Part shown: piece after piece, positions 3,908 to 52,251 of the stretch
Position numbering within the stretch: the stretch's first letter is position 1
Layout of the letters: the number at the start of each line of letters is the position of its first letter
Assembly: GCA_016187125.1 (NCBI GenBank)
Contig: JACPKF010000002.1
Coordinates: forward strand, 1,469 to 65,468
DNA from: Candidatus Saccharimonadota bacterium
GTDB taxonomy: Bacteria > Patescibacteriota > Saccharimonadia > Saccharimonadales > UBA10212
Length of the DNA stretch: 64,000 nt
Reading direction: 5' to 3'
Position numbers and translations under genes: made by a program
Notes under the pieces: generated by a model
Database searches by the model: none
Told to the model about the DNA's origin: nothing
The model's input: only the letters and a program-made list of their open reading frames with translations

Positions 3908-5948
3908 TCTTCATTATGGCATCCCAGCGAAACTGGCGGGCGGTTTTTAGGCCCTCAGCTGCTAAACGCTGCCTCAGGGCATGACTCGACTGGAGTTTTT
4001 TAATTGCTTCTGATAAAGCTTGTTCGTCGTCTTGTTCAACCATTAGGCAGTTTTTGCCAGCCAAACTAAAGTCACGATTGCCATGGGCATCGGTACAAAT
4101 TACCGGGCAGCCGGCGGCCATGGCTTCCAGAATCGGTAAACAAAAACCTTCGTGGCGGCTGGTTTGGACAAAAAAAGTAGCTTGGTTGTAAAGCTTATTT
4201 ACTTCACTGTTCTGCGGTTTTTTAAAGTAGGTAATTTTTCGGTCAAGTCTAGCCATTTCTGGCTCCGCGCCATAAAGCCACATCTCGGGACGCTTGTCAC
4301 CCAGCAGTTTCCAACCTCTAAAAGTCATCGGAAAGTTTTTTTGGAAAAAGCTGCGGCCGACTGCCAGCATCACATTGGCTTGGCGCTCGACATTTTTCAG
4401 CGGATGGTAGATTTTGTCGTCATAGCCACAGGGCAATAGCGTGGCCTCAAGACCTATGGCCCTAAGTTCTTCCTGGTTGGAAGACGAGATGGTTAAATTA
4501 CGAAATTCCTTACGGTAACAAGAGACTACTACCGACTGGGCTACGATATCATCTGGATAAAACCATGTTTCGAATTCCGAAACCATATATACCGGAATAC
4601 CCCTTTTAACCGAAGCTAGCCAAACCGGAAAGGCTGTTTCCCACCAAGTGGCGACTTTTATGGCGTCTTCATGAGACAAAGCTTGGGTTAGGCGGTCATA
4701 ATTTTTAAAAGTTCGAATTTTTATCTTATCGGAGAAATCCCAGATGGGACGATCTCTGTCTAGCCCCCAAATTTCAATGTCAAAATTACGCTCTGATAAG
4801 CGGTTAGCCTGCTCAAAAATATTCTTTATTCCCCCAGACAAGCCAAAGGTTTGGAGCACAAAAATAATTCGGCGCTTCCCTGCAGCGTTTGTCACTCTTC
4901 GTTTATCAAACCAGTCGCCCCATTTGTTCCAAAAATAATCGATTGATTGTTTTTCTTTGACGGACATGGTTTTGTGTTTTGCCCTAGTAGCTGACTCCAC
5001 GTGGGTCAGGGTGGCTGAAGGGAAGTATAAGGTTCGATAGCCAGCTTCCCAACCGCGCAGGCACAAATCAACATCCTCAAAAGCAAATTCAAAGTTGGTA
5101 TCAACCCCGCCAACGTAATCCAAAAGTTCCCGTTTTATATACAAACAGGCACCAGTCATAAACAGACAATAATGCGGCACGTTGGCCGGGCCATAATTAG
5201 ACTCTTGGAAACGATAATAGTGGTCAAACCACTTCGGCTGATCGGTGTTACGATGGCCGCCGGCGCTCTGGATACGGCCATCCGGATAAAGCAGTTTTGG
5301 CCCAACGATGCCGGTATCAACACCAAATTCATAGGCTCCGTATTGCAGGGCTTCCAGCCAGCCTTGGTGGGCGATGATATCGCTGTTGAGCAGCACTACG
5401 TCGTGTTTTTTGTCAGCTGCTTCCAGACCGCTATTGACGGCTTTGGCAAAACCGCCATTTTGTTTGCGGTAAAGCACCTTAACTTGTCCGTCTTCCAAAG
5501 TTTTCAGATACTGGCGGCTGGCGGACGTACAATAATCATCAACTATCAAAATCGATACCATCTCAGGGTCAGTAGTTGTTTTAAGGCTGTCGACACAAGA
5601 AGCCAGTACCTCAAAGTCGTTATAGCTAGGGATAACGATAGTTACTGGTTTGGCATGCTTGGCATACCAGGGTGTTATCGCCTCAGACGATACGCCACTG
5701 ACCAAGCCGTTCGGCAGAGCCCAGCTATCACCAAGTCCCGATGCCCGACGGTCAAAGCTAATTAGCTCATGCTTGAATTTACGTATAAAAGCCGAGGGGC
5801 CAAAGCGAAATAAATATAGGGTAGCCAAAAAAATCGTCCTGATGGGTCCTTTACCTCGGTATTTAAAGTTCCCGTGGGCGGCTCTTCTGAGAATTTTTTT
5901 AAAGACTCGGAATAGTATTTTAAACTTATTCATCCCGTTAGATCTCAC
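3876..5948 (-). CDS. two-domain glycosyltransferase (N-terminal GT2-like, C-terminal GT4/GT1-like)
   Basis: The N-terminal half has VTIVIPSYND...ILIVDD...LLNSD (GT2-type). The C-terminal half has RHEGFCLPILEAMAAGCPVICTD (GT4 E-x7-E region). Confidence 0.8.
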   Translation of the reverse strand: MRSNGMNKFKILFRVFKKILRRAAHGNFKYRGKGPIRTIFLATLYLFRFGPSAFIRKFKHELISFDRRASGLGDSWALPNGLVSGVSSEAITPWYAKHAKPVTIVIPSYNDFEVLASCVDSLKTTTDPEMVSILIVDDYCTSASRQYLKTLEDGQVKVLYRKQNGGFAKAVNSGLEAADKKHDVVLLNSDIIAHQGWLEALQYGAYEFGVDTGIVGPKLLYPDGRIQSAGGHRNTDQPKWFDHYYRFQESNYGPANVPHYCLFMTGACLYIKRELLDYVGGVDTNFEFAFEDVDLCLRGWEAGYRTLYFPSATLTHVESATRAKHKTMSVKEKQSIDYFWNKWGDWFDKRRVTNAAGKRRIIFVLQTFGLSGGIKNIFEQANRLSERNFDIEIWGLDRDRPIWDFSDKIKIRTFKNYDRLTQALSHEDAIKVATWWETAFPVWLASVKRGIPVYMVSEFETWFYPDDIVAQSVVVSCYRKEFRNLTISSSNQEELRAIGLEATLLPCGYDDKIYHPLKNVERQANVMLAVGRSFFQKNFPMTFRGWKLLGDKRPEMWLYGAEPEMARLDRKITYFKKPQNSEVNKLYNQATFFVQTSRHEGFCLPILEAMAAGCPVICTDAHGNRDFSLAGKNCLMVEQDDEQALSEAIKKLQSSHALRQRLAAEGLKTARQFRWDAIMKIAEKFYSEVV

Positions 5949-6009
5949 TCAACTTCCGTATCTCAATAGACGTCTGAACACCTATGCCTGGTTCGACGTA
6001 TAGATAAGC

Positions 6010-7047
6010 ATGGTAAGACTTTTGAGATCTAACGGGATTCATCGGTTGATTAACTCTTCACCACTATACCATATGGGGTGGTCTCTGCCGTACAATGAAG
6101 CTATGGCTAGTACAGTTTTAATAACTGGGGTTAACGGCTTTGTTGGCAAGCACCTGGCGCGTGAACTTAAAAAACGAGGTGTTAAAGTTATTGGCGTTGG
6201 TCGGGAAGTCTCACTGGCGCCCGAGTTGCAAAATACGCTTAGTGATTACTGGGTCTGTGACCTTACCCATAAAGCAGCGGTTACCAAACTTCCCTTAAAA
6301 TCTATTGAGGGGCTAATAAGCCTGGCAGGACTAGCCCGGGTTGGTGATTCTTTTGCCGACCCGGAAAAATATGAAGCTGTTAATGTCGGTGTTTTAGCTA
6401 ATCTTTGCCAGGATCTGCTTGGCAAAAAACTAAACCCAAGAATTATAGCTGTCAGCACTGCTGCGGTTTATGAGCCAAATCAGCCTTTGCCTCTGACCGA
6501 AAACTCCAAACTAACCAAAGACGGTTCGCCTTACGCTATGAGCAAACTTTTAATGGAGCGCTCGGCCAGCCAGTTTCGCGCCCGAGGCCTAGAGTTAATA
6601 ATTGTCCGGCCCTTTAATCATATCGGGCCGGGGCAGGAAGAGGGTTTTTTGGTGCCTGACTTGTTCGCCAAACTCAGGGCGGCAAAATTTTCCGGCGAGA
6701 CTATAAAAGTTGGCAACTTATCAACTAAGCGTGACTACACGGACGTGCGCGATGTAGCTAGAGCTTATGCTGATTTGGCGCTGGCTGGTTCACTGGATTA
6801 TGATCTTTATAACATTGGCAGCGGCAAAAGTGTGGCCGGCCAACAAATGCTAAATCTCTTGCTGGAGAAAACCGGCAAAAGTGGTCAGATCAAGATTGAG
6901 ACCGATAGTTCGCTACTCAGGCCCAACGATATTGCCGACATATTTGGCAGTTACCAGCGCTTAAACCAACAGACTGGCTGGAAGCCTCTTATTCCGCTGG
7001 AAAAAACTATTGAGGATTTTGTTAATTCATTCGACTCATCCGCCTGA
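6010..7047 (+). CDS. NAD-dependent epimerase/dehydratase (extended SDR); candidate GDP-4-keto-6-deoxy-D-mannose reductase (Rmd-like)
   Basis: Rossmann motif ITGVNGFVGKHL and catalytic YAMSK (YxxxK). It is convergent with gmd. The real start is probably the ATG at 6103 (MASTVLITG...), 7 nt after a TACAAT hexamer. The Rmd assignment is by context only. Confidence 0.7.
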   Translation: MVRLLRSNGIHRLINSSPLYHMGWSLPYNEAMASTVLITGVNGFVGKHLARELKKRGVKVIGVGREVSLAPELQNTLSDYWVCDLTHKAAVTKLPLKSIEGLISLAGLARVGDSFADPEKYEAVNVGVLANLCQDLLGKKLNPRIIAVSTAAVYEPNQPLPLTENSKLTKDGSPYAMSKLLMERSASQFRARGLELIIVRPFNHIGPGQEEGFLVPDLFAKLRAAKFSGETIKVGNLSTKRDYTDVRDVARAYADLALAGSLDYDLYNIGSGKSVAGQQMLNLLLEKTGKSGQIKIETDSSLLRPNDIADIFGSYQRLNQQTGWKPLIPLEKTIEDFVNSFDSSA

Positions 7048-8238: not shown

Positions 8239-8265
8239 CTGCTGCAAGGCTAGGCCTTGCAGCAG
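8239..8265. repeat. perfect 12-bp-stem hairpin (ctgctgcaaggc-tag-gccttgcagcag) beside the RAYT-like gene
   Basis: Read directly; the two arms are exact reverse complements. It lies in the divergent spacer between gmd and the transposase gene. Confidence 0.8.
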
Positions 8266-8291: not shown

Positions 8292-8906
8292 ATGCCCGCT
8301 AAAAATCGAATAAAGATCTATGTGCCAGAGGCTTTTTATCATGTATACAACCGGGGGCTCGACAAACAACTGATCTTTATCGACAATACTGATTATTCTG
8401 TCTTCCTTAGTTTGTTTAAACGATATTTGGCTAATGAAACTGTTAAAGATCCCTCGAGAAGAACCTACGAAAAATTAGCCAACGAAGTAGAACTTCTGGC
8501 CTATTGCCTGATTCCTAACCACTTTCATTTACTTATTTACCAGATTGATTCAATGGGTATGCCAAAACTTGTGCAACGGGTCCTTACTTCATACTCAATG
8601 TATTTCAATAAAAAGTATAAGAGGACTGGACCGTTATTTCAGGATACCTATAGGGCGAGTCAGATCTCTTCGGATGAGTACCTACAACATGTATCACGCT
8701 ATATTCACCTCAACCCTAAAAATTGGCGGCATTGGGACTTTTCAAGTCTAAGATATTATCAGGGCAGTCAAAAAGCCGACTGGATAAATGTAAGCCGTGT
8801 CTTAAGAATTTTTCGTAATAATAAAGAATATTTGGAATTTGTTGCCGATTATGAAGATTATAAAAGATCAATTGATGAAATCAAATACGAATTGGCAGAT
8901 CATTAA
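8292..8906 (+). CDS. IS200/IS605-type Y1 HUH transposase, REP-associated tyrosine transposase (RAYT)-like
   Basis: Motifs YHVYNRG, CLIPNHFHLLI (HUH) and SRYIHLNP (catalytic Tyr region) match the Y1_Tnp/RAYT family. Confidence 0.8.
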   Translation: MPAKNRIKIYVPEAFYHVYNRGLDKQLIFIDNTDYSVFLSLFKRYLANETVKDPSRRTYEKLANEVELLAYCLIPNHFHLLIYQIDSMGMPKLVQRVLTSYSMYFNKKYKRTGPLFQDTYRASQISSDEYLQHVSRYIHLNPKNWRHWDFSSLRYYQGSQKADWINVSRVLRIFRNNKEYLEFVADYEDYKRSIDEIKYELADH

Positions 8907-8958
8907 TTCGCTGCAGTCCATAGCCTAAAAAGCTTATAAAAATAGCTATAATTATGAG

Positions 8959-10009
8959 ATGAAGATTGTGATTGATGCCCGTGAATCTGGCACCAGTACT
9001 GGCCGCTACATAGATAAGCTAGTTGAGTATCTACATAAGCAAAAGCCGGACTTCGACTTTACGGTCCTAACAATGCCAGGGAGAGTTAGTTATTTAAAAT
9101 CGGTGGCACCGGACTTTAAAATTGTGCAGTCTACTTATAAAGAATTTAGTATGGCGGAGCAAACCGGGTTTTTAAAACAGCTAAAGGCCCTTAATGCCGA
9201 TTTGGTACATTTTGGCATGACCCAACAACCGATTTTTTACCAGGGCAAGGTCGTAACCACCATCCACGACTTAACAACCGCCAGATTTACTAATCCGGCC
9301 AAGAACCGGCTGGTCTTTAAAATCAAGCAGATGGTATACAGATGGGTTATAAAGAAAGTTGCGCGTAAATCATATGCGCTTATTACGCCAAGCAATTTTG
9401 TAAAAAGCGATGTCGCACAATATGCAAAAATCGATTTAGACAAAATTGCCGTAATTTACGAGGCCGCCGATAAAATTAATAAGCTTGCTGAGCCGTTACC
9501 TAATTTGGTAGGTAAAAAATTTTTGCTGCATGTTGGCCGGCCTTTGCCGCACAAGAATCTCAATCGCCTAATCGATGCTTTTATTAAACTTAAGGCGACT
9601 CATCCCGATTTACAGCTGGTTTTAGCCGGGAAGTTTGACGATAATTACCAGCTTCTTAAAAACTACGCCGTAAAAAAATCGGCTAAGGACGTTATTTTTA
9701 CTGACTTTGTAAGTGAGGGCCAACTTCGCTGGCTGTATGAACAGGCTACAGCCTATGTTTTTCCATCACTTTCCGAAGGATTTGGCTTGCCAGGGCGATG
9801 CCACATGTTTACCAGAAGTTTATAAAGATGGGGCTCTGTATTTTAACCCGTTAGATGCTGACGATATGGCCACCAAAATCAGCGAAGTCCTGGATAGTCC
9901 GCAGCTATGCCACAGTTTAGTTACGGCTGGTAAAATTCAAGCCGCCAAGTACTCTTGGGACAAAACCGCCTCTCGAACACTCAACGTTTATAAGTCAGTC
10001 TTGAGCTAA
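8959..10009 (+). pseudogene. GT4 glycosyltransferase disrupted by a frameshift or internal deletion
   Basis: ORF 8959..9825 ends just after SLSEGFGLPG. The homologous C-terminus (ATCLPEVYKDGALYFNPLD...YSWDKTA) continues in the +1 frame as ORF 9713..10009. The expected LEAMAxGxPV segment between them is missing. Confidence 0.65.
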
Positions 10010-10356
10010 GCGGCGACCTCTACTGGTATAACTGCGATCGGGATTGGCGCAATCCCTCTAGGGAGTCTAGCATTGTTGCAGGCAACACTACCTGCGGCAA
10101 ATTCAAGGCAGGCTCTTGGCCGATTCGGGTTTTCATGGGCAGAACATTGAAGCCAACCGTCTTTTTTCTGTAAATATCCACAATCCGTAGTTAGCACAAA
10201 AACACCTCGGATCTCAGGCTGGTCCAGAGGTACTGGTACTATTGAGCGAAGTCCACCGCCACCTTCAGATATAAAATCGGCCTCGGCTCGATTTAGTTCA
10301 ACTCTCATGCCTTGACGACAGCAAGCCCCCACACAACCACTACATATTTCACTCAT
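10006..10356 (-). CDS. YkgJ-type cysteine-cluster (zinc/iron-chelating) protein
   Basis: N-terminal CSGCVGACC cluster with additional Cys residues, 116 aa. Confidence 0.55.
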   Translation of the reverse strand: MSEICSGCVGACCRQGMRVELNRAEADFISEGGGGLRSIVPVPLDQPEIRGVFVLTTDCGYLQKKDGWLQCSAHENPNRPRACLEFAAGSVACNNARLPRGIAPIPIAVIPVEVAA

Positions 10357-10370
10357 CTAAATATACTATA

Positions 10371-10880
10371 TCATTTTTGGTTACTTTTATCAATTTCAAC
10401 TGGTTTTAGGACGATGTGGCGTTCCAGGCCCTCTCCCACCGACTCCGTTTGCAGACCATAATCGGTGGCTGCTTGATGGATTATGCGCCGGTCAGCGGCG
10501 TTCATTGGTGATAAATCCTTAGACTTGCCGCTGCCTTGAACCTCTTTAAACCAGTCCTCGGCTTGCTGCAAAAGTCGCTGGGCTCGATGCTTCTTATAAT
10601 CAGCTACATCAACATTAACCCTGGTATGAGAAAAGTTTTGGCTTTTAAGAGCCGAGCTGATGGTGTACTGCAGAGCCCGCATTGTCTCCCCATGGGCGCC
10701 GATTAAAAAGCCGTTGAGGTGTGTTGAGGGCACATTAAGTTCAATTACCTCATGATCCTCGGTGGTGGCGTAAATGTCGGTGTTAAGCCCAAAAAACGAC
10801 AGCAGGTCTTCTAAATACTTTTTGGCATACAAGATCGCCTCTTCGATATCATTATTTGAGTTAGTGATATTGTCGCTCAT
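10371..10880 (-). CDS. jag: RNA-binding protein Jag/KhpB (KH + R3H domains)
   Basis: C-terminal R3H motif (NAADRRIIHQAATDYGL) and its position downstream of yidC. Confidence 0.8.
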   Translation of the reverse strand: MSDNITNSNNDIEEAILYAKKYLEDLLSFFGLNTDIYATTEDHEVIELNVPSTHLNGFLIGAHGETMRALQYTISSALKSQNFSHTRVNVDVADYKKHRAQRLLQQAEDWFKEVQGSGKSKDLSPMNAADRRIIHQAATDYGLQTESVGEGLERHIVLKPVEIDKSNQK

Positions 10881-10910: not shown

Positions 10911-10991
10911 GAGGTCTATCCTTGGTGAAAAAGAGGTAAAATTTAGTAATTTTTATAAAAAAATACTTTGCTTTCACCAAGGATAGACCTC
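10911..10991. repeat. 81-nt palindromic element P1 (perfect 20-bp arms, 41-nt AT-rich loop with promoter-like hexamers)
   Basis: The arms gaggtctatccttggtgaaa and tttcaccaaggatagacctc are exact reverse complements. It is homologous to the element at 12805..12886 and lies 30 nt upstream of the jag start. Confidence 0.8.
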
Positions 10992-11006
10992 CAACAACAA
11001 GTTGTG

Positions 11007-11921
11007 TCATCGTCTCTTCCTTTTATGATGACCCCGCTTAGCCGTTTTTTTACGAGGGGAGGCTTTGGAACCTAGTCTATCAGCATCAACAACTGGCGAG
11101 CTTGACATCACCGTTTCAGCTTCGGACACATCCTCTCGCAAAACCTTTGATTGCTGGATCAAGGCTACGAAGCTACTGGTTAACCAATAAAGCGGCAGGG
11201 CTACTGCAAAATTCAGTCCAACGACCAGCACGATAAAAGGTATAAAGATCAAAGTGCCTCGACCGACTGCGGCGCTAACCTCTTGCTGATCAGCTTGCTT
11301 GCCCTGCCCAGCCTCCTTGAGAATTGAGCGCAGACCCCGGCTGTCTTTAGCGGTTGGCATAAGTTGCTTGCTTTGGATGTATTGAACCAGGGCTGAGGCA
11401 GCTACAATAATAACTGCCGGCCAGTAGGTTCCCTTTGGCCCGCTGGCGGTGCGGCTCAAGTCTACCATCCCGAACAAAGTATTATCAAACTGATGAATAT
11501 TATGAGCCAGCGTATCAAGCCAACCAAAGTGCAAAAAAGAGTATGAAAAGTTTATGAGTTGGTTGGGGTCTTTAATGATTTTCTGCAAGCCGAAATATAA
11601 ACCAATTAGAATCGGTGCTTGTACAAGCGCTATACCGATGGTTGCCAGCGGATTGATTTCCCGCTCTTTATACAGTTCCATCGTCAGTTGTGACTCTTTG
11701 CGCCGATCACCTTTAGCCGCTAACTTAATTTTTCTGAGTTCCGGCATTAGTAATCGTATAGCCTTGGTGTGATGGAGCTGTTTTTTAACTAGCGGCCACA
11801 TTAGCAGCCGCACAACTATGGTGAAGATTATGATAGCCAGGCCAAAGTTATGGCCCGGCACTATGTTATAAATCAGCACCAGTAAATTAAAAATCGGTTG
11901 GACTATAAAGGTATCAAACAT
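11007..11921 (-). CDS. yidC: membrane protein insertase YidC
   Basis: Polytopic 304-aa protein (LMWPLVKKQ...MPELRKI...) with a basic C-terminal tail. The rnpA-yidC-jag synteny supports the call. Confidence 0.85.
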   Translation of the reverse strand: MFDTFIVQPIFNLLVLIYNIVPGHNFGLAIIIFTIVVRLLMWPLVKKQLHHTKAIRLLMPELRKIKLAAKGDRRKESQLTMELYKEREINPLATIGIALVQAPILIGLYFGLQKIIKDPNQLINFSYSFLHFGWLDTLAHNIHQFDNTLFGMVDLSRTASGPKGTYWPAVIIVAASALVQYIQSKQLMPTAKDSRGLRSILKEAGQGKQADQQEVSAAVGRGTLIFIPFIVLVVGLNFAVALPLYWLTSSFVALIQQSKVLREDVSEAETVMSSSPVVDADRLGSKASPRKKTAKRGHHKRKRR

Positions 11922-12122
11922 ATCAGCAACTTACCTCTTCCGAACTACTATATCACGCCAGAGGTACTTCCTTCCTTAACCTGGCGTTTTAGCAATTACC
12001 CACGCACCAGAAAGCCTCGAACTTTAGTTCGGGGCTGAATGCCAGTTCTGGCTTTTAAGTGCGGGGTTCCACGCTCCGAAAGCCGTAAGCCTGAAGCCAC
12101 GGACTTTAGTCCGTGGAGCGCT

Positions 12123-12485
12123 TCACTTTTTTATTCGTTTAGCTAGAACGCCGGCAGCAGACAGTTGTTTTTTTAGCTGGCTAGTTAGAGACTCGACAGG
12201 TTCATCAATAACACTGTCGTGAAAAACCGTTAACACGATATCGTAGGCTTTTAATATATCGTTTTCATTGGTACGCACAACCTCGTAAAGTCTCCGGCGT
12301 ATCCGGTTACGAGCCACCGCCGATTTATTGATCTTACGAGCTACTACTACTGCCAGTCGGTAACTATCCCGCTTGGGATTCTCTAAAACTTTTAGAGAAA
12401 ATGAAGGACCCCGCGTGGTTACACCATGCCTGTAAACATGACGCAAGCTGCCATAGTCATGAAACCGATGCTTCCTTGAAATCAT
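12123..12485 (-). CDS. rnpA: ribonuclease P protein component
   Basis: 120-aa basic protein located downstream of rpmH. Confidence 0.8.
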   Translation of the reverse strand: MISRKHRFHDYGSLRHVYRHGVTTRGPSFSLKVLENPKRDSYRLAVVVARKINKSAVARNRIRRRLYEVVRTNENDILKAYDIVLTVFHDSVIDEPVESLTSQLKKQLSAAGVLAKRIKK

Positions 12486-12642
12486 AAAGATATAGTAACT
12501 AGGAAATAGTAACTAGGAAATAGTATTAAAAAACTTCTGGTTCGAGGTCTTTGCATCCGGAAAATAGCCCGAGATGCGGATTCACTCCGCACCCGGTGCG
12601 ATAAGAAACCGCGAAGGGGTTTCTTATAAGGCGTAAGCCGCA

Positions 12643-12780
12643 TTAGTGCGTTAAACGCACTCGGCCTCTGGCTCGGCGTCGCTTCAAAACCTTACGGCCG
12701 GCTCGCGTGGCCATACGGGCAAAGAAACCATGCTCCCGGCTACGTTGACGCTTTTTGGGTTGGTAGGTTCTTTTTGGCAT
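12643..12780 (-). CDS. rpmH: 50S ribosomal protein L34
   Basis: Too short for the ORF track. My translation is [45 protein letters not shown], a classic L34 sequence. Confidence 0.9.
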
Positions 12781-12804
12781 GATCATACCTTAACATAGTT
12801 CTCT

Positions 12805-12886
12805 GAGGTCTGTCCTTGTAAAAAAGTTAAGTAAAATCTAGTGATTTTTACTAAAAAATACATTGTTTTTTACAAGGACAGACCTC
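12805..12886. repeat. 82-nt palindromic element P2 (perfect 21-bp arms, 40-nt loop), paralog of P1
   Basis: The arms gaggtctgtccttgtaaaaaa and ttttttacaaggacagacctc are exact reverse complements. It lies 25 nt upstream of the rpmH start, in the rpmH/dnaA divergent spacer. Confidence 0.8.
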
Positions 12887-14519: not shown

Positions 14520-14839
14520 TGGCTGTGTACAAGGATTGTTTATGTTTGGTAAAAAACTAGCACAACTAATAGGTTTATGCACGCTGTACACAGTTTTGGG
14601 GTTGGCTGTTAATAAACTGGGGTTTTTTATACGCCAATTAATAACAGTTTATACATTGTTAGTTGAGTTTTATACACCTAAACAGTTTGGGTTTTTAAGT
14701 TGTTTAGCTAGGGTTTTTGCACACTTTCCACAAAACCTATATCTACAACTAAATAAAAGATTTGTATTAATAGACCCACTTAAAACCCTAGCTATCTTCC
14801 AACCTTCAAACAATCGTAATACAAACGGACTGTAAAGGA
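14520..14839. other. candidate oriC part 2: dense DnaA-box cluster plus AT-rich stretch between dnaA and dnaN
   Basis: Boxes are TTGTACACA (rc of 14524..14532), TTATGCACG (14575), TTATACATT (14649), TTATACACC (14669), TTTTGCACA (14715) and CTTTCCACA (14724). An AT-rich run lies around 14750-14775. Confidence 0.6.
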
Positions 14840-28628: not shown

Positions 28629-28862
28629 TATATCAGAAGGTCAGTCAACGATTTTTCGGCTAAAAGCTGTTAGCTAACAGCTCATAGCTATTTTCTGCAG
28701 GGTTCTGCAGGGATTGTCCCTGCAAACGGGGGAAATATTGTATAGTATATAGTCTTCGGGTTATTACCTTATTGTTTCCAGGGTGGTACCCTGTAAATGG
28801 GTCTCGGATTTCCAAGATTTCCAAGGACGGTTCTTGGAAAAATGATGGAGTAAATGGATCTC

Positions 28863-29198
28863 TTAAACTAGGCCTAACAGCTGTGCCAGCCTGCGCCTGA
28901 CTTCGGCCATTATTTTGGTGCTGACTTTGCCAACTGAGCGATCAATAATAAACGCCTCAACGGTGTAAATTTTATCTGGTCTAATGTAGCTATTAATCCG
29001 TAGGCCGCCTTCAATAAAATCTGTGTTGCGCAGTGTGATAGCACTTTGAGAAGCCAAGTCTTTGCTGGTTATTTGGCAAATGATATAGTTGTCAAAATCA
29101 GCCAGGCCAATTATTAAGGCCGGTCTTTTTTTGTATTTTAGGTAGTTGGAGTATGGAAACTCAACCGCTACGACATCGCCTACTGCAAGTACGCCCAT
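28863..29198 (-). CDS. type II toxin, MazF/PemK family
   Basis: Motifs GDVVAVEFPYS...KKRPALIIG...ICQITSK are typical PemK/MazF sequences. Confidence 0.75.
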   Translation of the reverse strand: MGVLAVGDVVAVEFPYSNYLKYKKRPALIIGLADFDNYIICQITSKDLASQSAITLRNTDFIEGGLRINSYIRPDKIYTVEAFIIDRSVGKVSTKIMAEVRRRLAQLLGLV

Positions 29199-29437
29199 GC
29201 CGCATCTTCTTCAGGTGTATCCCAGTCTTTAGCTAAGGCTGAGTAGCCAGGCCCGTAAGCCTTGATCATAGCCATTTTTTTAGCCTTGCTGGCAGGTCTT
29301 TTTTTTGCAGGCTCGATAAAAATCTTGCCATTTTTTAGCTTAAGCTCTAGCTCGGTACCCAGGCCAGCTTCTTCAATCAAGACTTTTGGTATGCGCACAC
29401 CTCGGGAGTTGCCAATTTTTATCAGACTTGCTTTCAT
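29180..29437 (-). CDS. type II antitoxin, AbrB/MazE/SpoVT family
   Basis: LIKIGNSRGVRIPKVLIEEAGL forms a looped-hinge-helix motif. It overlaps the MazF-like gene. Confidence 0.75.
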   Translation of the reverse strand: MKASLIKIGNSRGVRIPKVLIEEAGLGTELELKLKNGKIFIEPAKKRPASKAKKMAMIKAYGPGYSALAKDWDTPEEDAAWAYLQ

Positions 29438-29480: not shown

Positions 29481-29524
29481 TCAAGGACGGTTCTTGAAGA
29501 TCTTCTTTCAAGAACCGTCCTTGG
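29481..29524. repeat. hairpin made of two inverted copies of CAAGGACGGTTCTTG; a third copy lies at 28821..28837
   Basis: Read directly: tcaaggacggttcttga ... tcaagaaccgtccttgg. Together with the copy at 28821..28837 it brackets the MazEF cassette. Confidence 0.75.
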
Positions 29525-34704: not shown

Positions 34705-34740
34705 CATAACAAAATCCAGCGATCGCTGGATTTTGTTATG
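34705..34740. promoter_or_regulatory. perfect 36-bp palindrome in the divergent T4SS/pilin control region
   Basis: cataacaaaatccagcgatcgctggattttgttatg is its own exact reverse complement. It lies between two genes that diverge from it, so it is not a terminator. Confidence 0.6.
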
Positions 34741-37087: not shown

Positions 37088-37157
37088 CCCAGCACTTAGC
37101 TCCGCGTGCTTCGCAAGTATCTTCCAAAGGAAGATAGTCGCGGAGCTAAGTGCTGGG
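37088..37157. terminator. strong bidirectional hairpin (perfect 19-bp outer stem plus inner hairpin) between convergent genes
   Basis: cccagcacttagctccgcg ... cgcggagctaagtgctggg, with inner hairpin atcttcc-aaa-ggaagat. It lies between pilin 5 and the convergent GIY-YIG gene. Confidence 0.6.
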
Positions 37158-41407: not shown

Positions 41408-41669
41408 GCTTAAGTCGTGACTCCAGCTTCCGTAAAACAGCGGAAGCTGTTTTACTTCCAGCTTACTCGTGCCTTTAAGCTACGCCCCATGAAGAATCCT
41501 CTTTTCGCAGGGACCCCTTAACACCCCGATATCTCGGTGTGTTTTGTTGAGACTGCGCTACAATAAACATAAGCATGAATCCCGTTAGACCCCAAAAGAC
41601 TCACAAGCATCGTATGTCGGTTGAATCTCGGCATAGTTTATCAATCGTTAACCAGCAACAGAAGGTTAA

Positions 41670-42257
41670 GTGGGGTCTAACGGGATGAATGATGACGAAA
41701 ATGGGTCTTGGGATTATAAACCCGACGGCCAAAATGTTTCCAAGCAGCCGGAGCTGCCCAGCACCAAGTCTGGAAAAACTCATCGTAGGCAGCCAGAACT
41801 AAAGCCGGTTAGTTGGACAGCTTCGGAATACATTGACCATAGCCGGGGGCCGGTTTGGTATATTTTACTAAGTTTCATCACCGTGTTACTAGCCGCTGCA
41901 GTTTATTTTCTTACCAAAGATCGTTTTGCAACTGGCCTGGTTGCAGTTGTTGGCATAATTGTAGCTGTTTATAGCCTAAAAAAACCTCAACAACTTACAT
42001 ATGAGCTATCTGAGTCCGGCTTGAGGGCCGGTGAGAAGGTCTACACCTACAGACTTTTTAAATCGTTTGCCATTATCCATGAAGGCGCTCTGTCCAGCAT
42101 AACTTTTCTGCCCATCAAAAAATTTATGCCGCCACTTAGTATCTTTTTTGACGCAGCGGACGAAGAAAAAATAGTCAAAATTCTTGGTCAGCACCTGCCC
42201 TACGAGCAGCGAGGACTGGACAGCATGGATCGTCTTACCCGTCGCCTCCGCTTCTAA
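41670..42257 (+). CDS. membrane protein with two TM segments and a C-terminal ~90-aa domain (bacterial PH-like?), function unknown
   Basis: 195-aa ORF; the likely start is the ATG at 41685. TM pair VWYILLSFITVLLAAAVYFL / GLVAVVGIIVAVYSL. Confidence 0.55.
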   Translation: MGSNGMNDDENGSWDYKPDGQNVSKQPELPSTKSGKTHRRQPELKPVSWTASEYIDHSRGPVWYILLSFITVLLAAAVYFLTKDRFATGLVAVVGIIVAVYSLKKPQQLTYELSESGLRAGEKVYTYRLFKSFAIIHEGALSSITFLPIKKFMPPLSIFFDAADEEKIVKILGQHLPYEQRGLDSMDRLTRRLRF

Positions 42258-44020: not shown

Positions 44021-45232
44021 ATGTTAAAAAGCGCTCACAATTTGGTTAAAAGTGTTGGTAAAAAGCTGAAGCTTGACGATGCGACCGTAGAAAAGCTTCT
44101 GAAGGCGGACGCGGAGCACCAGTTTGAAATTAGTTTGAAAAGTGGGAAGCAGTTTAAGGCTTACCGTGTCCAGCATAGCAATAAACTAGGCCCCTATAAA
44201 GGCGGAATCAGATTCCATCCTCGGGTGAATCTGGATGAAATAAGAACTCTGGCAACTTTAATGAGTCTTAAAACTGCCGCTGTGGGGCTGCCGCTTGGTG
44301 GCAGCAAAGGCGGCGTGACGGTGGATCCAAAGGTACTTACTCAAGACGAACTCGAGGAACTAAGTCGTAAGTATGTACAGCACCTGCAATCTCATATAGG
44401 ACCGGCTAAAGACGTCCCTGCTCCTGATGTAAATACCAATGCCCAAATCATGGATTGGATGATTGACGAATACCAAAATCTGACTGGCAACCTGAGCCAG
44501 GCTAGTTTTACCGGTAAAAGTCTGACTAGTGGCGGCAGTGAAGGCCGTGATGAAGCCACCGGCCGCGGCGGCGTAATTGCCCTGCGCGAACTCCTTATGC
44601 TACAAGGATTATCCTTGCAGCATAAGGGGGATCAGGTATTGCGTTTTGCCGTTCAGGGATTTGGCAATGTGGGTTCGAATTTTGCAATCGTCGCTGAGCA
44701 GGAGCAGCCCAACTGGAAGTTAATTGCCGCCAGTGATTCTGGTGCCACTATTTTTGACTCAGAAGGACTTAGTGCCTCTAGTCTGGCGGCCTTTAAAAAA
44801 CAAGCTGGCCGCTTTAGCCAGTACAAAAATGCTCAAGTCCTAAACAGTGACGCAATATTGTTCCTGGAAGTTGATGTTTTGGTCCTAGCGGCCCTGGAGG
44901 ATGCCATAACAAATAAGAACATGCAGCAGGTTAAGGCCCGACTTATCGTTGAGCTAGCCAATGGGCCGATTAACGAAACCGCCTATGGTTACTTGGCCAA
45001 AAAAGGCATAACTGTTTTACCGGACATTATCACCAATGCCGGAGGCGTTATTGTAAGTTATTTGGAGTGGCTACAAAATAAGGCTGATGAGCGTTGGACG
45101 CGCGCCAAAGTTAACACCGAGCTAGAACAGTACATGATTAAAGCCATAAGCGAGGTTTATAAAACTTCTAGTTCACAAAATCTGACACTCAAAGAAGCGG
45201 CAATTATGCTAGCTCTCAAACGCCTGACTTAA
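44021..45232 (+). CDS. gdh: Glu/Leu/Phe/Val dehydrogenase family (glutamate dehydrogenase-like)
   Basis: Catalytic region KGGIRFHP...LPLGGSKGG and the Rossmann motif AVQGFGNVG. Confidence 0.85.
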   Translation: MLKSAHNLVKSVGKKLKLDDATVEKLLKADAEHQFEISLKSGKQFKAYRVQHSNKLGPYKGGIRFHPRVNLDEIRTLATLMSLKTAAVGLPLGGSKGGVTVDPKVLTQDELEELSRKYVQHLQSHIGPAKDVPAPDVNTNAQIMDWMIDEYQNLTGNLSQASFTGKSLTSGGSEGRDEATGRGGVIALRELLMLQGLSLQHKGDQVLRFAVQGFGNVGSNFAIVAEQEQPNWKLIAASDSGATIFDSEGLSASSLAAFKKQAGRFSQYKNAQVLNSDAILFLEVDVLVLAALEDAITNKNMQQVKARLIVELANGPINETAYGYLAKKGITVLPDIITNAGGVIVSYLEWLQNKADERWTRAKVNTELEQYMIKAISEVYKTSSSQNLTLKEAAIMLALKRLT

Positions 45233-45393
45233 ACAATGTTCGATGTCTCATAGAATAAGGCGAGACCAAAAGCAATGCAGTATTGCTATTTATTTGCTAC
45301 AAGGATAATCCTTGTAGCAAATCTTGTAGCAAATAAATAGTCTCTAGACTACTGACGGAGAGTGCTTTTACAGTTAATAAATTTAGTAGTCTG

Positions 45394-48541: not shown

Positions 48542-49408
48542 TTGGGTAGTGTTACCAATGAAACAGAATTGGGTAAAAAATTGCAGCTGGCTCGCAAACG
48601 TGCCGGCTTAACCCAACAACAGCTATGCCAAAAAGCCGGTCTGTCTTATTCAACCCTGGCCAAAATCGAACGCGGCGCTATTCGTTCCCCCTCGGTATTT
48701 ACGGTTGCCTCCATAGCCAGCGCCACTAGTACGCCTTTAGAAGACCTGCTTGATTTAGATACCCAAAGTGGCGGCTCCCCTGCCCCGCCGAACGCCAAAA
48801 AACGCTCCAAAACCGGAATCAGATTTGTTTATTTTGATATTGACGGCGTTTTGATAAGGTTTGTTATGCACGCCTTTCCTAAAATAGCTCGGGACCACGG
48901 GCTTCAACCAGACGTCGTCGAAAATGCTTTTTGGCGTCACAACGACTCGGTTTGCAGGGGGGATATTAGCCTGGAAGAGTTTAACTCAGTCGTTGGCCAA
49001 GAGCTCGGCATAAGCGGCTTCAGTTGGCTAAAATATTATTTTGAATCAGCCGAACCAACTCCCGGAGCCATCGATTTTTTGAAATGGGCAGCCCAACACT
49101 ACGACGTCGGCCTTATCAGCAACCATATGCCCGGTGAGACCGAAGAGTTATTCAAACGCCAGATTATCCCTGAGCTGGACTTTAAAACCGTGGTTGATTC
49201 TTGCAAGGTGGGAGCTGTCAAGCCAGAGGCCAAAATTTATGAAACCGCCACTGAGCTGGCAGCCGCTACGCCACCAGAAATTCTGTTGATTGACGATAAC
49301 CGGACCAATTTAACGGCTGCCGACCGTGCCGGCTGGCAAATATCCTGGTTTGACCAGTTTCAACCGGCCGAGAGTATCGAGCGGGCCAAAGCTCAGCTGG
49401 AGTTTTAA
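48542..49408 (+). CDS. fusion protein: N-terminal XRE-type HTH domain plus C-terminal HAD-superfamily hydrolase domain
   Basis: HTH region LGKKLQLARKRAGLTQQQLCQKAGLSYSTLAKIERG. HAD motifs are FDIDGV (I), LISNH (II), K-containing (III) and LIDDNRTN (IV). Confidence 0.7.
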   Translation: MGSVTNETELGKKLQLARKRAGLTQQQLCQKAGLSYSTLAKIERGAIRSPSVFTVASIASATSTPLEDLLDLDTQSGGSPAPPNAKKRSKTGIRFVYFDIDGVLIRFVMHAFPKIARDHGLQPDVVENAFWRHNDSVCRGDISLEEFNSVVGQELGISGFSWLKYYFESAEPTPGAIDFLKWAAQHYDVGLISNHMPGETEELFKRQIIPELDFKTVVDSCKVGAVKPEAKIYETATELAAATPPEILLIDDNRTNLTAADRAGWQISWFDQFQPAESIERAKAQLEF

Positions 49409-52251
49409 ATATTTTTGACAGCTGTTTGGAAAGCCGCGATTTCGTGTTTGATAGCTTCTAAAAGTTGCTGCTCTTCGACTAATTGAGTTTTTGTTTGTTT
49501 GACTAATTCCTTCGGCGCTTTTTGAGTGTAAGATTTGTTAGATAGGCGCTTTTGCAGCAGCTTTATGGCGGCTTCTCGCGCCTTTTGGGAGGTTTTTAGC
49601 CGGCCTAAGTAGGCTTGAGCGGTTTCCCGGTCAATGTCCAGCCAAGCGGCGTATTTAGTGCCGGTTAGTCGTAAGCCCTTAGCTGCTTTAGCTTCTTTTA
49701 CCTGGCTTAAGCGTCCTAAACTTTTGACTAATTCTTTATTTTCATCAATCAGCGGCGCGGCTTTATAAAACAGCGCCGGTTTAGTAACACCAACATTGGC
49801 GGCTATTTGCCTGGACTGGGTAATAATTTCTTGGAGCTCTTTGAATTGGCTAACCTTAGCTAGATCAACTTTCTGAAATTTTGGCCAAAGCTGCGAGGCC
49901 AGCAAACTCTCCTTTTCCAAGGCCAGGCCTTGGAAAAGGTTTTTATCCTGAGCAGAGTCGCCCATTCGACCTTGCTCAGGGCGGTCCTGCCCATTCGACG
50001 AGTTCAGGGCAGCCTTAGTGTTAATCGAAGGCTGAGTTTTGTCGAACGGATCGAAGGATTGCCAGATGGTTTCGGTAACAAATGGAGCAAATGGGTGGGC
50101 TATTTTTAGAGTTGATTTAAGCACGAAGGCCAGCACTTCTCTGTTGGGCGTTGTTTTGCTGACTTCTACGTACCAGTCGGCAAAATCATCCCAAACAAAA
50201 TGGTACAGCGCGTCATAAGCTTCGCTGAAACGGAAATTATCCAAGTCCTCAGAAACAGCCCTCGCCGCAATACTTAACTTGTTAAGTATCCAATGATCGG
50301 CAACCGATTTTGGCATAACACTACCCCTGTTATGACCTAAGGGTACGACCCTTAGACTTCTTCTACCTATGTTGTTCTCCTCGCCCTCTAAGGGTCGTAC
50401 CCTTAGGTCGTCTATGTAGCGGGCGATGTTCCAGAGCTTGTTAACAAAATTACGGTTGGCTACGATCTTTGACTTTCTTACTCGCTGGTCAGTTCCTGGA
50501 GAAGTGCCGGCTATCAAAGCCAAGCGCAGAGCGTCAGTGCCGTATTCATTTATAACTCCAACTGGATCAACGATGCTGTCTGGATCACTTTTGCTCATTT
50601 TCTTGCCGGTTTCTGTCCGCACTAGGCCATGCAGATAAACGGTTTTAAATGGTACTCGGCCAGTAACATAAGTAGTGGCTAGAATCATTCGGGCAACCCA
50701 GAAAAAGAGAATTTCATAAGCTGTTTCTAAGACATCAGTCGGGTGGTAAGTTTGATAGTCAATACTTTTGGCTAAAAGATCATCCAGCGATAGCGAAAAG
50801 TCCTTTGTCAGTTCTGGATCGACTAAGGTGCTCCAGGTCCAAAGCGCCGAGGAAAACCAGGTATCCAGCGTGTCCGGATCTTGCTGCCAGCCCTCTTCCT
50901 GCGGCGGCCTAACGCCTACATAAACACTGTCTTTGCTGTGGACCGCGGACTGTGGACTGTGGACTGATTCCTGTCTGTACCACACCGGAATCTGATGTCC
51001 CCACCAGATTTGACGGCTGATGCACCAGTCCCGCAGATTATCAATCCAGTGGTAGTAAATTTTCTCGAACCGTTTAGGCACAATCTTAATATCGCCATCT
51101 TCAATAACAGCTCTCATGACTTCCTTGAGGCTGCGTTTTTGACCCTTCCAATCTACCGCCGGCCGGTTGACATCAATAAACCATTGCAGTTTGATTTGTG
51201 GTTCAATAACACCTTTGCCGCGGCTATTTAAAGCGATGTTATGGGTGTATGTCTTGTCAATGCTGACCAATAAATTTTTCTGACGCAATTTTTCCACAAT
51301 TTTAGGCCGGGCTTCATCTATTTTTATAGCTTCGAATTCGCCGGCGATAGCTAAAAGCTTTCCATCAAAATCAATAATTTGTTCTTTTTCCAGACCGTGC
51401 CGCTCGGCGATTTCAAAGTCAGTGCGGTCGTGCCACGGCGTGATGGTCATCACCCCTGTTCCAAAGGCTGGGTCCACGGCCTCGTCTTTAATAATGGTGG
51501 CGGTAACTGGGCCATTGATCCATTCACATTCAAAAGTGTCGCCGGTTTTATATTGAGCGTAGCGTTTGTCACCGGGATGCATAACGACGTATTTGTCGCC
51601 AAACTTGGTTTCGGGACGGGCCGTGCTTATCTTAAAAGGGCCGTACTGTAAGGTGTAAAGTGGCGACTCCTCTTCTTTGTAAATAACTTCATCGTCAGAA
51701 ACCGTAGTTTCCAGATTGGGGTCCCAATTAACTATCCGATGGCCCCTGTAAATTAGCCCGTCTTGGTACATTTTTATAAAGACTTCGTTAACGCAACGGT
51801 TAAGTGCCTCGTCTAAGGTGTATCGCAGCCGGCTCCAATCGGCGCTGGCGCCCATAGCCCGCATTTGCTTAAGCATTGTACCTCTGTTACGATCGGCAAA
51901 CTCCTTGACCTTGGCAACAAAGGCTTCGCGGCCCAGTTCGTGTTTATTGGTCCCCTGCTCTGCCAGTTGTCGCTCAACTACAGAATTTGTAGCAATCGCT
52001 GCGTGGTCGGTTCCCGGTAACCAGAGAGCGTCGTAACCCACCTGGCGCGCATGCCTGATTAGAATGTCTTGAAGCGTTATGAATAATGCCCCGCCAAGGT
52101 GGAGGGTGGATGTTTCATTGGGGGGTGGCATGGCTATAGAGAAATGAGGTTTGGAGCTACTCGGATCAGCTATAAAGACGCCGCTCTTCTCCCAAAGGGC
52201 ATAAATATCGGCTTCATAATCACCTGCAACATAGGCTTTAGGTAATCCCAT
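49405..52251 (-). CDS. valS: valine--tRNA ligase carrying several repeat-derived in-frame insertions
   Basis: PPPNETSTLHLGGA (HIGH region with an HLGG variant), LWLPGTDHAAIAT, KMSKS (GKKMSKSD) and a C-terminal coiled coil; 948 aa. Confidence 0.9.
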   Translation of the reverse strand: MGLPKAYVAGDYEADIYALWEKSGVFIADPSSSKPHFSIAMPPPNETSTLHLGGALFITLQDILIRHARQVGYDALWLPGTDHAAIATNSVVERQLAEQGTNKHELGREAFVAKVKEFADRNRGTMLKQMRAMGASADWSRLRYTLDEALNRCVNEVFIKMYQDGLIYRGHRIVNWDPNLETTVSDDEVIYKEEESPLYTLQYGPFKISTARPETKFGDKYVVMHPGDKRYAQYKTGDTFECEWINGPVTATIIKDEAVDPAFGTGVMTITPWHDRTDFEIAERHGLEKEQIIDFDGKLLAIAGEFEAIKIDEARPKIVEKLRQKNLLVSIDKTYTHNIALNSRGKGVIEPQIKLQWFIDVNRPAVDWKGQKRSLKEVMRAVIEDGDIKIVPKRFEKIYYHWIDNLRDWCISRQIWWGHQIPVWYRQESVHSPQSAVHSKDSVYVGVRPPQEEGWQQDPDTLDTWFSSALWTWSTLVDPELTKDFSLSLDDLLAKSIDYQTYHPTDVLETAYEILFFWVARMILATTYVTGRVPFKTVYLHGLVRTETGKKMSKSDPDSIVDPVGVINEYGTDALRLALIAGTSPGTDQRVRKSKIVANRNFVNKLWNIARYIDDLRVRPLEGEENNIGRRSLRVVPLGHNRGSVMPKSVADHWILNKLSIAARAVSEDLDNFRFSEAYDALYHFVWDDFADWYVEVSKTTPNREVLAFVLKSTLKIAHPFAPFVTETIWQSFDPFDKTQPSINTKAALNSSNGQDRPEQGRMGDSAQDKNLFQGLALEKESLLASQLWPKFQKVDLAKVSQFKELQEIITQSRQIAANVGVTKPALFYKAAPLIDENKELVKSLGRLSQVKEAKAAKGLRLTGTKYAAWLDIDRETAQAYLGRLKTSQKAREAAIKLLQKRLSNKSYTQKAPKELVKQTKTQLVEEQQLLEAIKHEIAAFQTAVKNI
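50336..50407. mobile_element. 72-bp MITE-like element with perfect 20-bp terminal inverted repeats, inserted in frame in valS
   Basis: cctaagggtacgacccttag ... ctaagggtcgtacccttagg are exact reverse complements. 72 nt is 24 codons, which encode LRVRPLEGEENNIGRRSLRVVPLG in a variable part of ValRS. Confidence 0.65.

Follow-up and report, generated by a model that had tools for sequence, protein, structure and literature searches.

REPIN-RAYT systems, which combine REP doublets forming hairpins (REPINs; REP, repetitive extragenic palindromic sequence) with RAYTs (tyrosine transposases associated with REPs), are regarded as long-lived intragenomic replicators and are mainly known from Proteobacteria and a few other phyla. 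A REPIN consists of two inverted REPs, each with an imperfect palindromic core, around a spacer of 18-112 nt; it forms a single-stranded DNA (ssDNA) hairpin in which compensatory changes are common, and A/T runs lie beside its REPs (PMC3337134, PMC3116915). REPs also flank the single-copy RAYT gene, and REP singlets are decaying remnants (PMC3337134, PMC3116915). Most REPs lie downstream of genes and some are intragenic, and long terminal inverted repeats (TIRs) may flank RAYT-type genes instead (PMC3733652). Here, we describe two palindromes, P1 and P2, in a 64,000-nucleotide stretch of contig JACPKF010000002.1 from a Candidatus Saccharimonadota bacterium (the window), and compare them mainly with the GI REPIN of P. 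fluorescens SBW25 (89 bp) and with the E. coli REP/BIME (bacterial interspersed mosaic element) repeats and their TnpA_REP. A literature search returned nothing relevant on palindromic repeats, MITEs (miniature transposable elements with inverted repeats) or RAYTs in Saccharibacteria/Patescibacteria, and a 2017 RAYT survey does not mention Patescibacteria. From the sequence comparisons below, we consider it fairly probable that P1 and P2 are non-autonomous elements of a REPIN-like type, linked to a family of RAYT-like transposases with a wide distribution in Patescibacteria.

Structure of P1 and P2

The two palindromes described in the earlier note were confirmed, with lengths of 81 and 82 nt and arms that begin with GAGGTCT[A/G]TCCTTG.

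10911-10991, minus strand: P1, putative REPIN-like palindrome (covariance model, 96 bits)
12805-12886, minus strand: P2, second member of the P1 family (covariance model, 98 bits)

The arms of P1 are perfect over 20 nt (GAGGTCTATCCTTGGTGAAA/TTTCACCAAGGATAGACCTC) and enclose a loop of 41 nt, and those of P2 are perfect over 21 nt (GAGGTCTGTCCTTGTAAAAAA) with a loop of 40 nt. The loops are homologous, as the earlier note had claimed: over 57 nt, loops and right arms together show 82% identity, with the same orientation in both elements. P1 is made up of two inverted 14-nt REP-like units (GAGGTCTATCCTTG), an inner stem of A/T runs and a conserved asymmetric spacer of 41 nt, and its polarity within the family, designated F, is the minus-strand reading. 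The 14-nt units GAGGTCT[A/G]TCCTTG are spaced 53-54 nt apart in P1 and P2, a layout shared by all 12 copies of the family described below. Within the arm, TTG and an A-run come after a core, AGGnC-n-GnCCT, that forms an imperfect palindrome; the pairing of this core is perfect in the variants AGGAC-T-GTCCT (L029; L-numbers denote comparison loci) and AGGTC-C-GACCT (L031), at four of five positions in P2 and at three of five in P1.

These palindromes far exceed chance. The window holds 21 perfect hairpins with a stem of at least 12 nt, while Markov shuffles of it gave about 0.3 such hairpins and none with a stem above 14 nt. The folding z-scores of P1 and P2 are -8 to -10, as RNA or as ssDNA, and the minimum free energy of the whole element as ssDNA is -22 kcal/mol (z about -8). 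No third copy of the arm motif was found in the window. The Rfam scan at gathering thresholds reported only tRNAs and no known RNA family for P1 or P2, and a permissive scan added only sub-threshold miRNA-precursor models, which stand for generic hairpins. Viral contigs held no match to the P element, and a phage origin was rejected for this reason. The possibility that CAAGG/CCTTG is an uptake sequence or a methylation site was also rejected, since the motif is not enriched (126 observed, about 120 expected).

Dispersal and placement of the P family

GTDB species genomes and JGI metagenomes, scanned with a two-arm pattern, yielded copies with homologous loops at L009 (the same as L020), L010 (the same as L012), L013, L022, L024 and L027, and a covariance model built from nine copies added three more diverged ones (L024:282-359, L024:8092-8168 and L031:7842-7921). 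Pattern scans and covariance model together give 12 copies, which correspond to 11 independent insertions on at least seven Saccharibacteria/Patescibacteria contigs. Mean column identity across the aligned copies is 82-84%, loop included, and the loop follows the asymmetric consensus CAAAGTATTTTTTGGTAAAAATTACTAAATTTTACC. The arm GAGGTCTGTCCTTG has the variants GAGGACTGTCCTTG, GAGGACGATCCTTG and GAGGTCCGACCTTG; an exact two-arm match occurs in only two GTDB species, and four copies share one 18-kb contig of another genome. The P family, found at unrelated intergenic sites in several genomes, is probably a mobile element of Saccharibacteria/Patescibacteria that is non-autonomous and low in copy number.

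All copies lie in intergenic gaps, L020 and L027 overlapping only a doubtful 5' extension of an open reading frame (ORF). A stop codon stands 3-33 nt upstream in six copies (P1, L012, L013, L024:3256, L024:8092 and L031, the last located between wzm and wzt), and a start codon stands 18-30 nt downstream of three (P1, P2 and L024:282). Gaps between convergent genes hold two copies, L013 (in a 99-nt gap) and L024:8092, and the L022 copy lies between co-directional genes in the opposite polarity. In co-directional contexts the polarity is biased 6:1, or 8:1 if P2 and L024:282 are counted by the downstream gene; this bias is suggestive, not decisive. GC skew was uninformative for orienting the copies relative to replication. 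None of the 12 copies showed a target duplication that is common to the copies and abuts the palindrome.

Arm-like half-sites occur just upstream of three full copies (L020:1258-1290, L012:10662-10680 and L024:251-281), with the sequences GAGGTCCGACCTTG[TC]AAAAAGCA.. and GTCTGACCTTGCAAAAAGCA; they look like truncated older copies, or nested or tandem insertions. Two further hairpin clades, one GC-rich (at least 10 copies) and one AT-rich (a pair), were excluded from the family, since they share only the pattern-forced 12-mer and their loops are unrelated. The GC-rich clade (L011, L014-L016, L018, L019, L021, L025, L026 and L028) comes from soil metagenomes with a GC content of about 0.63; its arms are about 30 nt long, [GT]GTCAGGTCT[TG]TCCTTGTGAyTTTTTCTAC, and have the 12-mer GGTCTnTCCTTG in common with the P arms. 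Its loops are variable, its loci many and the family abundant, and it may be a REPIN-type family of an Acidobacteria-like lineage.

Insertion history and maintenance of the stem

Pfam verified the gene neighbourhood: dnaA is encoded on the plus strand, and jag (KH and R3H domains), yidC, rnpA and rpmH are encoded on the minus strand.

10371-10880, minus strand: jag, KhpB-like, KH and R3H domains, split from yidC by the P1 insertion
11007-11921, minus strand: yidC, whose stop overlaps the jag start (ATGA) in relatives
12643-12786, minus strand: rpmH (L34), with 20 ancestral nt before its start, common to L007
12887-13133: conserved cluster of DnaA boxes and GTAGAATTCACAAT block, adjoining P2; probably the dnaA promoter/oriC-proximal region

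P1 is positioned 15 nt past the yidC stop and 30 nt ahead of the jag ATG, so that the filled site reads ATGA, 15 nt, P1, 30 nt, ATGA. The empty site is seen in L030 (86% YidC identity), L006 and L007, where yidC and jag overlap at cgATGA, while L029 (93% identity) carries an orthologous P1 with compensatory changes in the arms. The insert that contains P1 measures 113-126 nt across the window and L029. P1 is a lineage-specific insertion into the formerly overlapping yidC/jag junction. P2 sits between the DnaA-box cluster and rpmH, 18 nt ahead of rpmH (24 nt to the second ATG) and 247 nt ahead of dnaA, and it is not present upstream of rpmH in L005, L006 and L007. Relatives retain the DnaA-box/GTAGAATTCACAAT block upstream of rpmH, and L007 also retains the 20 nt preceding the start codon; since these 20 nt are ancestral, the P2 insert ends at most 7 nt past the palindrome. 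P2 was considered as an element of oriC or its DNA unwinding element and rejected, as many sites of the family are not origins and the DnaA-box block persists without P2 in relatives.

The outer 21-bp helix is paired in 96.8% of cells across nine copies. Double changes were found in 8 of the 21 stem pairs, a number matched by none of 500 shuffles, and only three G-U cells occur in the stem. When the window was compared with L029, 4-fold degenerate sites were 60% (yidC) and 67% (jag) identical, and each 14-nt outer arm was identical at 12 of 14 positions, with both differences compensated on the opposite arm (GAGGTCTA.../...TAGACCTC vs GAGGACTG.../...CAGTCCTC). Compensatory changes have preserved the hairpin over a span in which neutral sites diverged. 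The strict Watson-Crick pairing fits a constraint that acts on DNA, or on both strands, and not on a single RNA. A smaller hairpin within the loop, GGTAAAA...TTTTACC, was rejected as a functional helix, because it has only one covarying pair and many unpaired cells.

Genes of the 23S_rRNA_IVP family (four-helix bundle) recur at these Saccharibacteria loci (L005:5924-6349, L032:7488-7865, and L035:4900-5220 and 10112-10489). The L005 gene occupies the yidC/jag junction, the site of P1 in the window, and the others lie near Y1 genes.

The Y1/RAYT-like gene and its flanking repeats

The following features were identified at a gene 2 kb from P1.

8292-8906, plus strand: gene with a Y1/HUH (IS200-like) transposase fold, RAYT-like (Pfam Y1_Tnp, 42.8 bits)
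8239-8265, strand unspecified: REP hairpin CTGCTGCAAGGC-tag-GCCTTGCAGCAG, ending 26 nt ahead of the Y1 gene
8910-8925: degenerate REP-like remnant GCTGCAGTCCATAGCC, just 3' of the Y1 gene (weak, from direct reading)

The Pfam PF01797 score of the Y1 protein compares with a cut-off of 23. H77 and H79 (NHFHLL) and Y137 (RYIHLNP) are invariant among 23 homologues, and the family, of about 204 residues, is well conserved with more than 6000 homologues in Patescibacteria. A sequence-only search of the PDB with the protein or its profile gave nothing, or a weak match of the HUH region to ISDra2, and a fold search was needed. The AlphaFold (AF2) model has a pLDDT of 88, and its best Foldseek match in the PDB was 4ER8_A (E 1.6e-6, TM 0.65 over the target, 174 columns), followed by 2XM3 and 2VJV (the TnpA proteins of ISDra2 and IS608; E 2-3e-5). 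The predicted fold thus appears nearest to the E. coli TnpA_REP/REP hairpin complex, ahead of the TnpA proteins of IS200/IS605, by a modest margin. We suggest that the product of 8292-8906 is a candidate for the mobilising enzyme, or for a relative of it.

In all seven lineages examined (the window, L031, L032/33, L034, L035-40, L041-43 and L044-49), short palindromes bracket the Y1 genes; they follow the pattern CA[A/G]G[G/T]-N5-[C/A]C[T/C]TG and are often arranged as inverted doublets with spacers of 10-44 nt.

Window: CAAGGCTAGGCCTTG
L031: CAAGGCCGAGCCTTGCAAAG, on both sides
L032: CAGGGACAATCCCTG, doublets
L034: 16-nt inverted repeats GCGAGGACGGTTCTTG / CAAGAACCGTCCTCGC
L035: CAAGGACSGTCCTTG, one upstream and an inverted doublet with a 29-nt spacer downstream
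L041: TTGCAGGGCCAATCCCTGCAA, arrays
L044: CAAGTACNGTACTTGAAA, on both sides, doublets

The arms of P resemble these REPs, which bracket RAYT-like Y1/HUH genes of a family with a member 2 kb from P1. P-like REPs that match the arms at 11-12 of 14 positions flank the Y1 genes in L034 and L035, and the best matches of a position weight matrix of the P arm were the Y1 flanks in these two loci (20.6 kb and 12.6 kb, respectively). When a covariance model trained on P copies only was run over 98 kb of Y1 loci, it matched Y1-flanking doublets with 30-34 bits (E about 5e-5), and its sole other match, in L035-L038, was a doublet at a distance of about 2 kb from the Y1 gene. These comparisons, by weight matrix and by covariance model, are less biased ones and point the same way. 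The REP at 8239-8265 is homologous to CAAGGCCGAGCCTTG, present on both sides of the L031 Y1 gene. That gene belongs to the window's sub-lineage (65% identity), and in L031, as in the window, the Y1 gene and a P copy are 2 kb apart.

Beside the Y1 gene of the window, a GT4 glycosyltransferase gene (8959-10009) consists of two ORFs that overlap (8959-9825 and 9713-10009), which probably reflects a frameshift or a pseudogene.

Comparison with REPIN-RAYT and related systems

P1 and P2 agree with REPINs in several respects. First, they consist of inverted units with imperfect palindromic cores, and their spacer lies inside the published range. Second, copies of the family form a long ssDNA hairpin with frequent compensatory changes, are extragenic and have A/T runs beside the REPs within the doublet. 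Third, as in REPIN-RAYT systems, a single Y1/HUH gene is bracketed by REPs or REP doublets, and its predicted fold is nearest to TnpA_REP. Finally, the window contains REP singlets that resemble decayed remnants.

Here, we need to weigh a number of points that speak against a REPIN-RAYT relationship. The family appears to be low in copy number, with two copies in 64 kb, while classical REPINs number tens to hundreds per genome. Neither the GTAG nor the CGTC tag of tagged REPs (Di Nocera 2013) is present at the arm ends or in the Y1-flanking REPs. The core of the arm, 11 nt, is short and imperfect, weak next to classical REPs, while the stem of the doublet is perfect, and the spacer is strongly conserved and asymmetric, all unlike REPINs. 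The Y1 protein belongs to a divergent clade of about 204 residues with a C-terminal helical extension, unlike classical RAYTs, and its score against NCBIfam REP_Tyr_transpos (NF047646), 43 bits, lies under the cut-off of 80. Since the Y1 family is so widespread in Patescibacteria, its co-occurrence with P copies carries little weight by itself, and no Y1 homologue was found in the approximately 15 kb examined of the contig with four copies. In the window, the Y1 gene has beside it a REP that is not of the P type: CAAGGCTAGGCCTTG shares only the CAAGG/CCTTG frame with the P arms, and the flanking REP of the window and L031 (CAAGGC-NNN-GCCTTG) has only this frame in common with them, L031 also having the tail CCTTGCAAAG. 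Because the closest Y1-flanking REPs are those of other lineages (L034 and L035), the product of 8292-8906 is no more than a candidate for the cognate enzyme. One more such point, the ATGA repeat around P1, is taken up with the MITE explanation below. The host is also a Patescibacterium with a reduced genome, and the RAYT surveys consulted do not cover this group.

Three other described systems are similar in part. The L034 Y1 gene, between 16-nt inverted repeats that resemble the P arms, recalls the TIRtrons/TIRYTs (PMC3733652); P1 and P2 contain no gene, and the other Y1 lineages have self-palindromic REPs and no simple TIRs. Correia elements, which are MITEs of Neisseria, are likewise palindromic intergenic inserts of about 100 nt near start codons; they can be co-transcribed as a hairpin and can supply promoter hexamers, and are the nearest precedent for the promoter-cassette idea of the earlier note. 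Correia elements are characterised by TIRs of 26 bp, duplication of a TA target, an IHF site, promoters that have been mapped and processing by RNase III, and the P elements have no sequence similarity to them. Rickettsia palindromic elements (RPEs) and intragenic REPs can lie in frame within genes and provide a parallel to an in-frame palindrome in valS, described below; RPEs bear the CGTC tag, no transposase dedicated to them is known, and P1 and P2 are intergenic.

Under the REPIN-like explanation, a single DNA strand folds into a hairpin of 20-21 bp because the inverted units flank a conserved, AT-rich spacer of 40 nt. A Y1-type transposase would copy or move this single-stranded hairpin, by analogy with REP/REPIN-RAYT and IS200/IS605, and the polarity bias could stem from strand-specific insertion during replication. 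Effects on neighbouring genes would then be by-products or later co-options, and not the elements' reason for existing. The insertion of P1 probably ended the translational coupling of yidC and jag, the latter now presumably being served by the Shine-Dalgarno sequence AGGGA in the new spacer. P2 would lie either within the 5' leader of rpmH or across the rpmH promoter, and might give the leader a stable hairpin and dnaA a -35-like hexamer. Effects on the expression of jag, rpmH or dnaA are possible, and so is co-option as an attenuator, stabiliser or promoter at individual sites.

Alternative explanations

A wider version of the REPIN-like explanation is that Patescibacteria have their own old, mostly vertically inherited RAYT-REPIN system, with the Y1 protein of about 204 residues and untagged CAAGG...CCTTG REPs, whose REPINs have been repeatedly co-opted. 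The cases would be the splitting of yidC and jag, the rpmH/dnaA region, the bracketing of mazEF and the in-frame insertion in valS (the last two are described below). We put this forward only tentatively.

An RNA-level host element, that is, a terminator or attenuator independent of a U-tract and possibly bidirectional, or a hairpin for RNase III or stability, which spread through its usefulness, seems rather unlikely to us. It would agree with the six copies shortly past stop codons and the two between convergent genes, with the very stable RNA hairpin (-35 to -40 kcal/mol), and with Watson-Crick-only pairing, which suits function on both strands. Other long hairpins also occur at convergent junctions in the window, and co-option of REPs for attenuation or mRNA stability is known. 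However, the stem has no trailing T-run, and a terminator scan found no terminator-like site at P1 or P2 (3' flanks, TGAGCAAG and AGAGAACT). For P2, located in a divergent promoter region, there is no gene upstream that it could terminate, P1 and the L031 wzm/wzt copy would split operons that are co-expressed in relatives, and in L012 a classical terminator hairpin comes after the element. The conservation of the arm core, the asymmetric spacer and the likeness to Y1-flanking REPs would be left unexplained.

A conventional MITE, whose arms would be TIRs for the DDE transposase of an unseen parent insertion sequence that makes a short target duplication, is in our view quite unlikely. The inverted termini of 14-21 nt, the small, non-coding insert and the pair of empty and filled sites would suit it, and so would the ATGA repeated on either side of the P1 insert in the window, a possible target-site duplication of a kind that Y1 transposition does not make. 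However, this repeat is needed in any case for the yidC stop and the jag start and flanks the 122-nt insert, not the palindrome; L029 has ATAG/ATGA instead, and other copies show no shared target duplication. In addition, the variants GAGGACGATCC/GGATCGTCCTC change on both arms together, indicating hairpin pairing and not two independently bound TIRs, and among the transposase-like genes found only Y1/HUH genes are bracketed by arm-like repeats.

The earlier note had proposed portable promoter or operator-promoter cassettes, in which the arm would supply a -35 and the loop a -10 for jag and rpmH, and perhaps for dnaA from the other strand. Portability is borne out by 11 independent insertions and a datable P1, while the cassette itself does not agree with the placement of the copies and their poor -10 hexamers, and we regard it as highly unlikely. 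The hexamers with 17-nt spacers named in that note are present, and most copies have TTGnnn-N17-(T/A/G)(A/G)(T/G)AAA, but they are not promoter-like above background: a sigma-70 consensus scan of the region reported 8 sites against 4.7 expected, and none of these pairs was among them. The minus-strand -10 candidates TATAAA and AGTAAA are without the conserved T at position 6, and AGTAAA is also without the A at position 2; the plus-strand TAGTAA and TAGTGA exist as claimed but lack the T at position 6 too and went unreported by the scan. Across the family, the T is missing in all copies and the A in most. The TTG of the supposed -35 belongs to CCTTG, the conserved core of the REP, which already accounts for its conservation. 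Eight of nine orientable copies have one and the same polarity with respect to the flanking or downstream gene, and as P2 leaves only 18-24 nt ahead of rpmH, the promoter of rpmH has to lie within P2 or upstream of it. The scan also pairs AGGACA in the right arm of P2 with a conserved TAGAAT at 18-nt spacing on the plus strand, facing dnaA. On the other side, a promoter is not needed at the two copies between convergent genes (L013 and L024:8092-8168), one copy is reversed, and P1 lies within a formerly translationally coupled operon, while a strict 21-bp Watson-Crick stem with compensatory changes would be superfluous. The earlier note itself had said that copies at random positions or at gene 3' ends would refute the cassettes and fit terminators or REPs instead. 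Such copies were found, and the Y1/RAYT-like genes with their flanking REPs strengthen the REP alternative. Individual copies may act as promoters, for example P2 for rpmH.

Binding sites of a regulator, with half-sites five helical turns apart in a regulon operator, are extremely unlikely, since the neighbours are functionally unrelated (yidC/jag, rpmH, rplC, lexA-like, wzm/wzt and galU-like), orthologous sites in close relatives have no element and the inner stem covaries, which an operator does not need, even if the 14-nt arm core is conserved beyond pairing and isolated arm-like half-sites adjoin three copies.

Other repeats and structured regions in the window

Two further REP features bracket the toxin-antitoxin pair mazEF (28863-29437).

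28821-28837, strand unspecified: REP singlet CCAAGGACGGTTCTTGG, on the opposite side of mazEF from the doublet
29482-29523, strand unspecified: REP doublet CAAGGACGGTTCTTGAA-8 nt-TTCAAGAACCGTCCTTG (covariance model, 30.6 bits)

The doublet represents a related REP class, identical at 13 of 14 positions to the Y1-flanking repeats of L034, and doublet and singlet belong to the class found in the Y1 flanks of L034 and L035.

Within valS (49405-52251, minus strand), a 76-nt palindrome at 50334-50409 is in frame and has perfect 23-nt arms (GACCTAAGGGTACGACCCTTAGA) that contain the REP-like core AAGGGT-ACG-ACCCTT. At the same place the protein has about 21-25 extra residues (LRVRPLEGEENNIGRRSLRVVPL...), which T. 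thermophilus ValRS lacks. This palindrome is an intragenic REPIN/RPE-like insertion in an essential gene. Palindromes of 15 bp with the form CAAGG-N5-CCTTG occur five times (8245, 43913, 44603, 45300 and 49918), against 1.1 expected, and are probably REP singlets; one is upstream of the Y1 gene and two are within ORFs (44021-45232 and valS), and those at 44603 and 45300 have GCTACAAGGAT[TA]ATCCTTG in common.

A second two-copy palindrome family (5932-6038 and 41579-41686) has 16-nt arms, ATCCCGTTAGA[TC]C[TC]CA, and loops of 75-76 nt, with both copies at gene 5' ends. Between convergent genes lie a hairpin at 37088-37157 with perfect 19-nt arms and a nested palindrome at 45286-45340. A loopless palindrome of 18+18 nt (34705-34740) is situated in a divergent gap, and a hairpin with 13-nt arms (14705-14794) in the dnaA-dnaN gap. 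The spacers of the rpmH-rnpA-yidC operon (11922-12122 and 12486-12642) are unusually long, GC-rich and structured-looking, and matched no Rfam family. A conserved element of about 150 nt (..CAGTGCAAGGAAG...CAATGCGCCAAGAA..) is common to L005:4130-4300 and L007:1290-1460; it stands ahead of rpmH in one of the two loci and in the rpmH-rnpA gap in the other.

Implications

If P1 and P2 are REPIN-like elements, REPIN-RAYT biology would extend to the candidate phyla radiation, into the streamlined genomes of about 1 Mb of Saccharibacteria, and assembly breaks and odd intergenic hairpins in such metagenome-assembled genomes would be explained. Annotators should be cautious not to take palindromes of this type for promoters, terminators or small RNAs. 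The locus also shows an insertion that probably uncoupled two translationally coupled essential genes, and another that landed beside the dnaA/rpmH control region.

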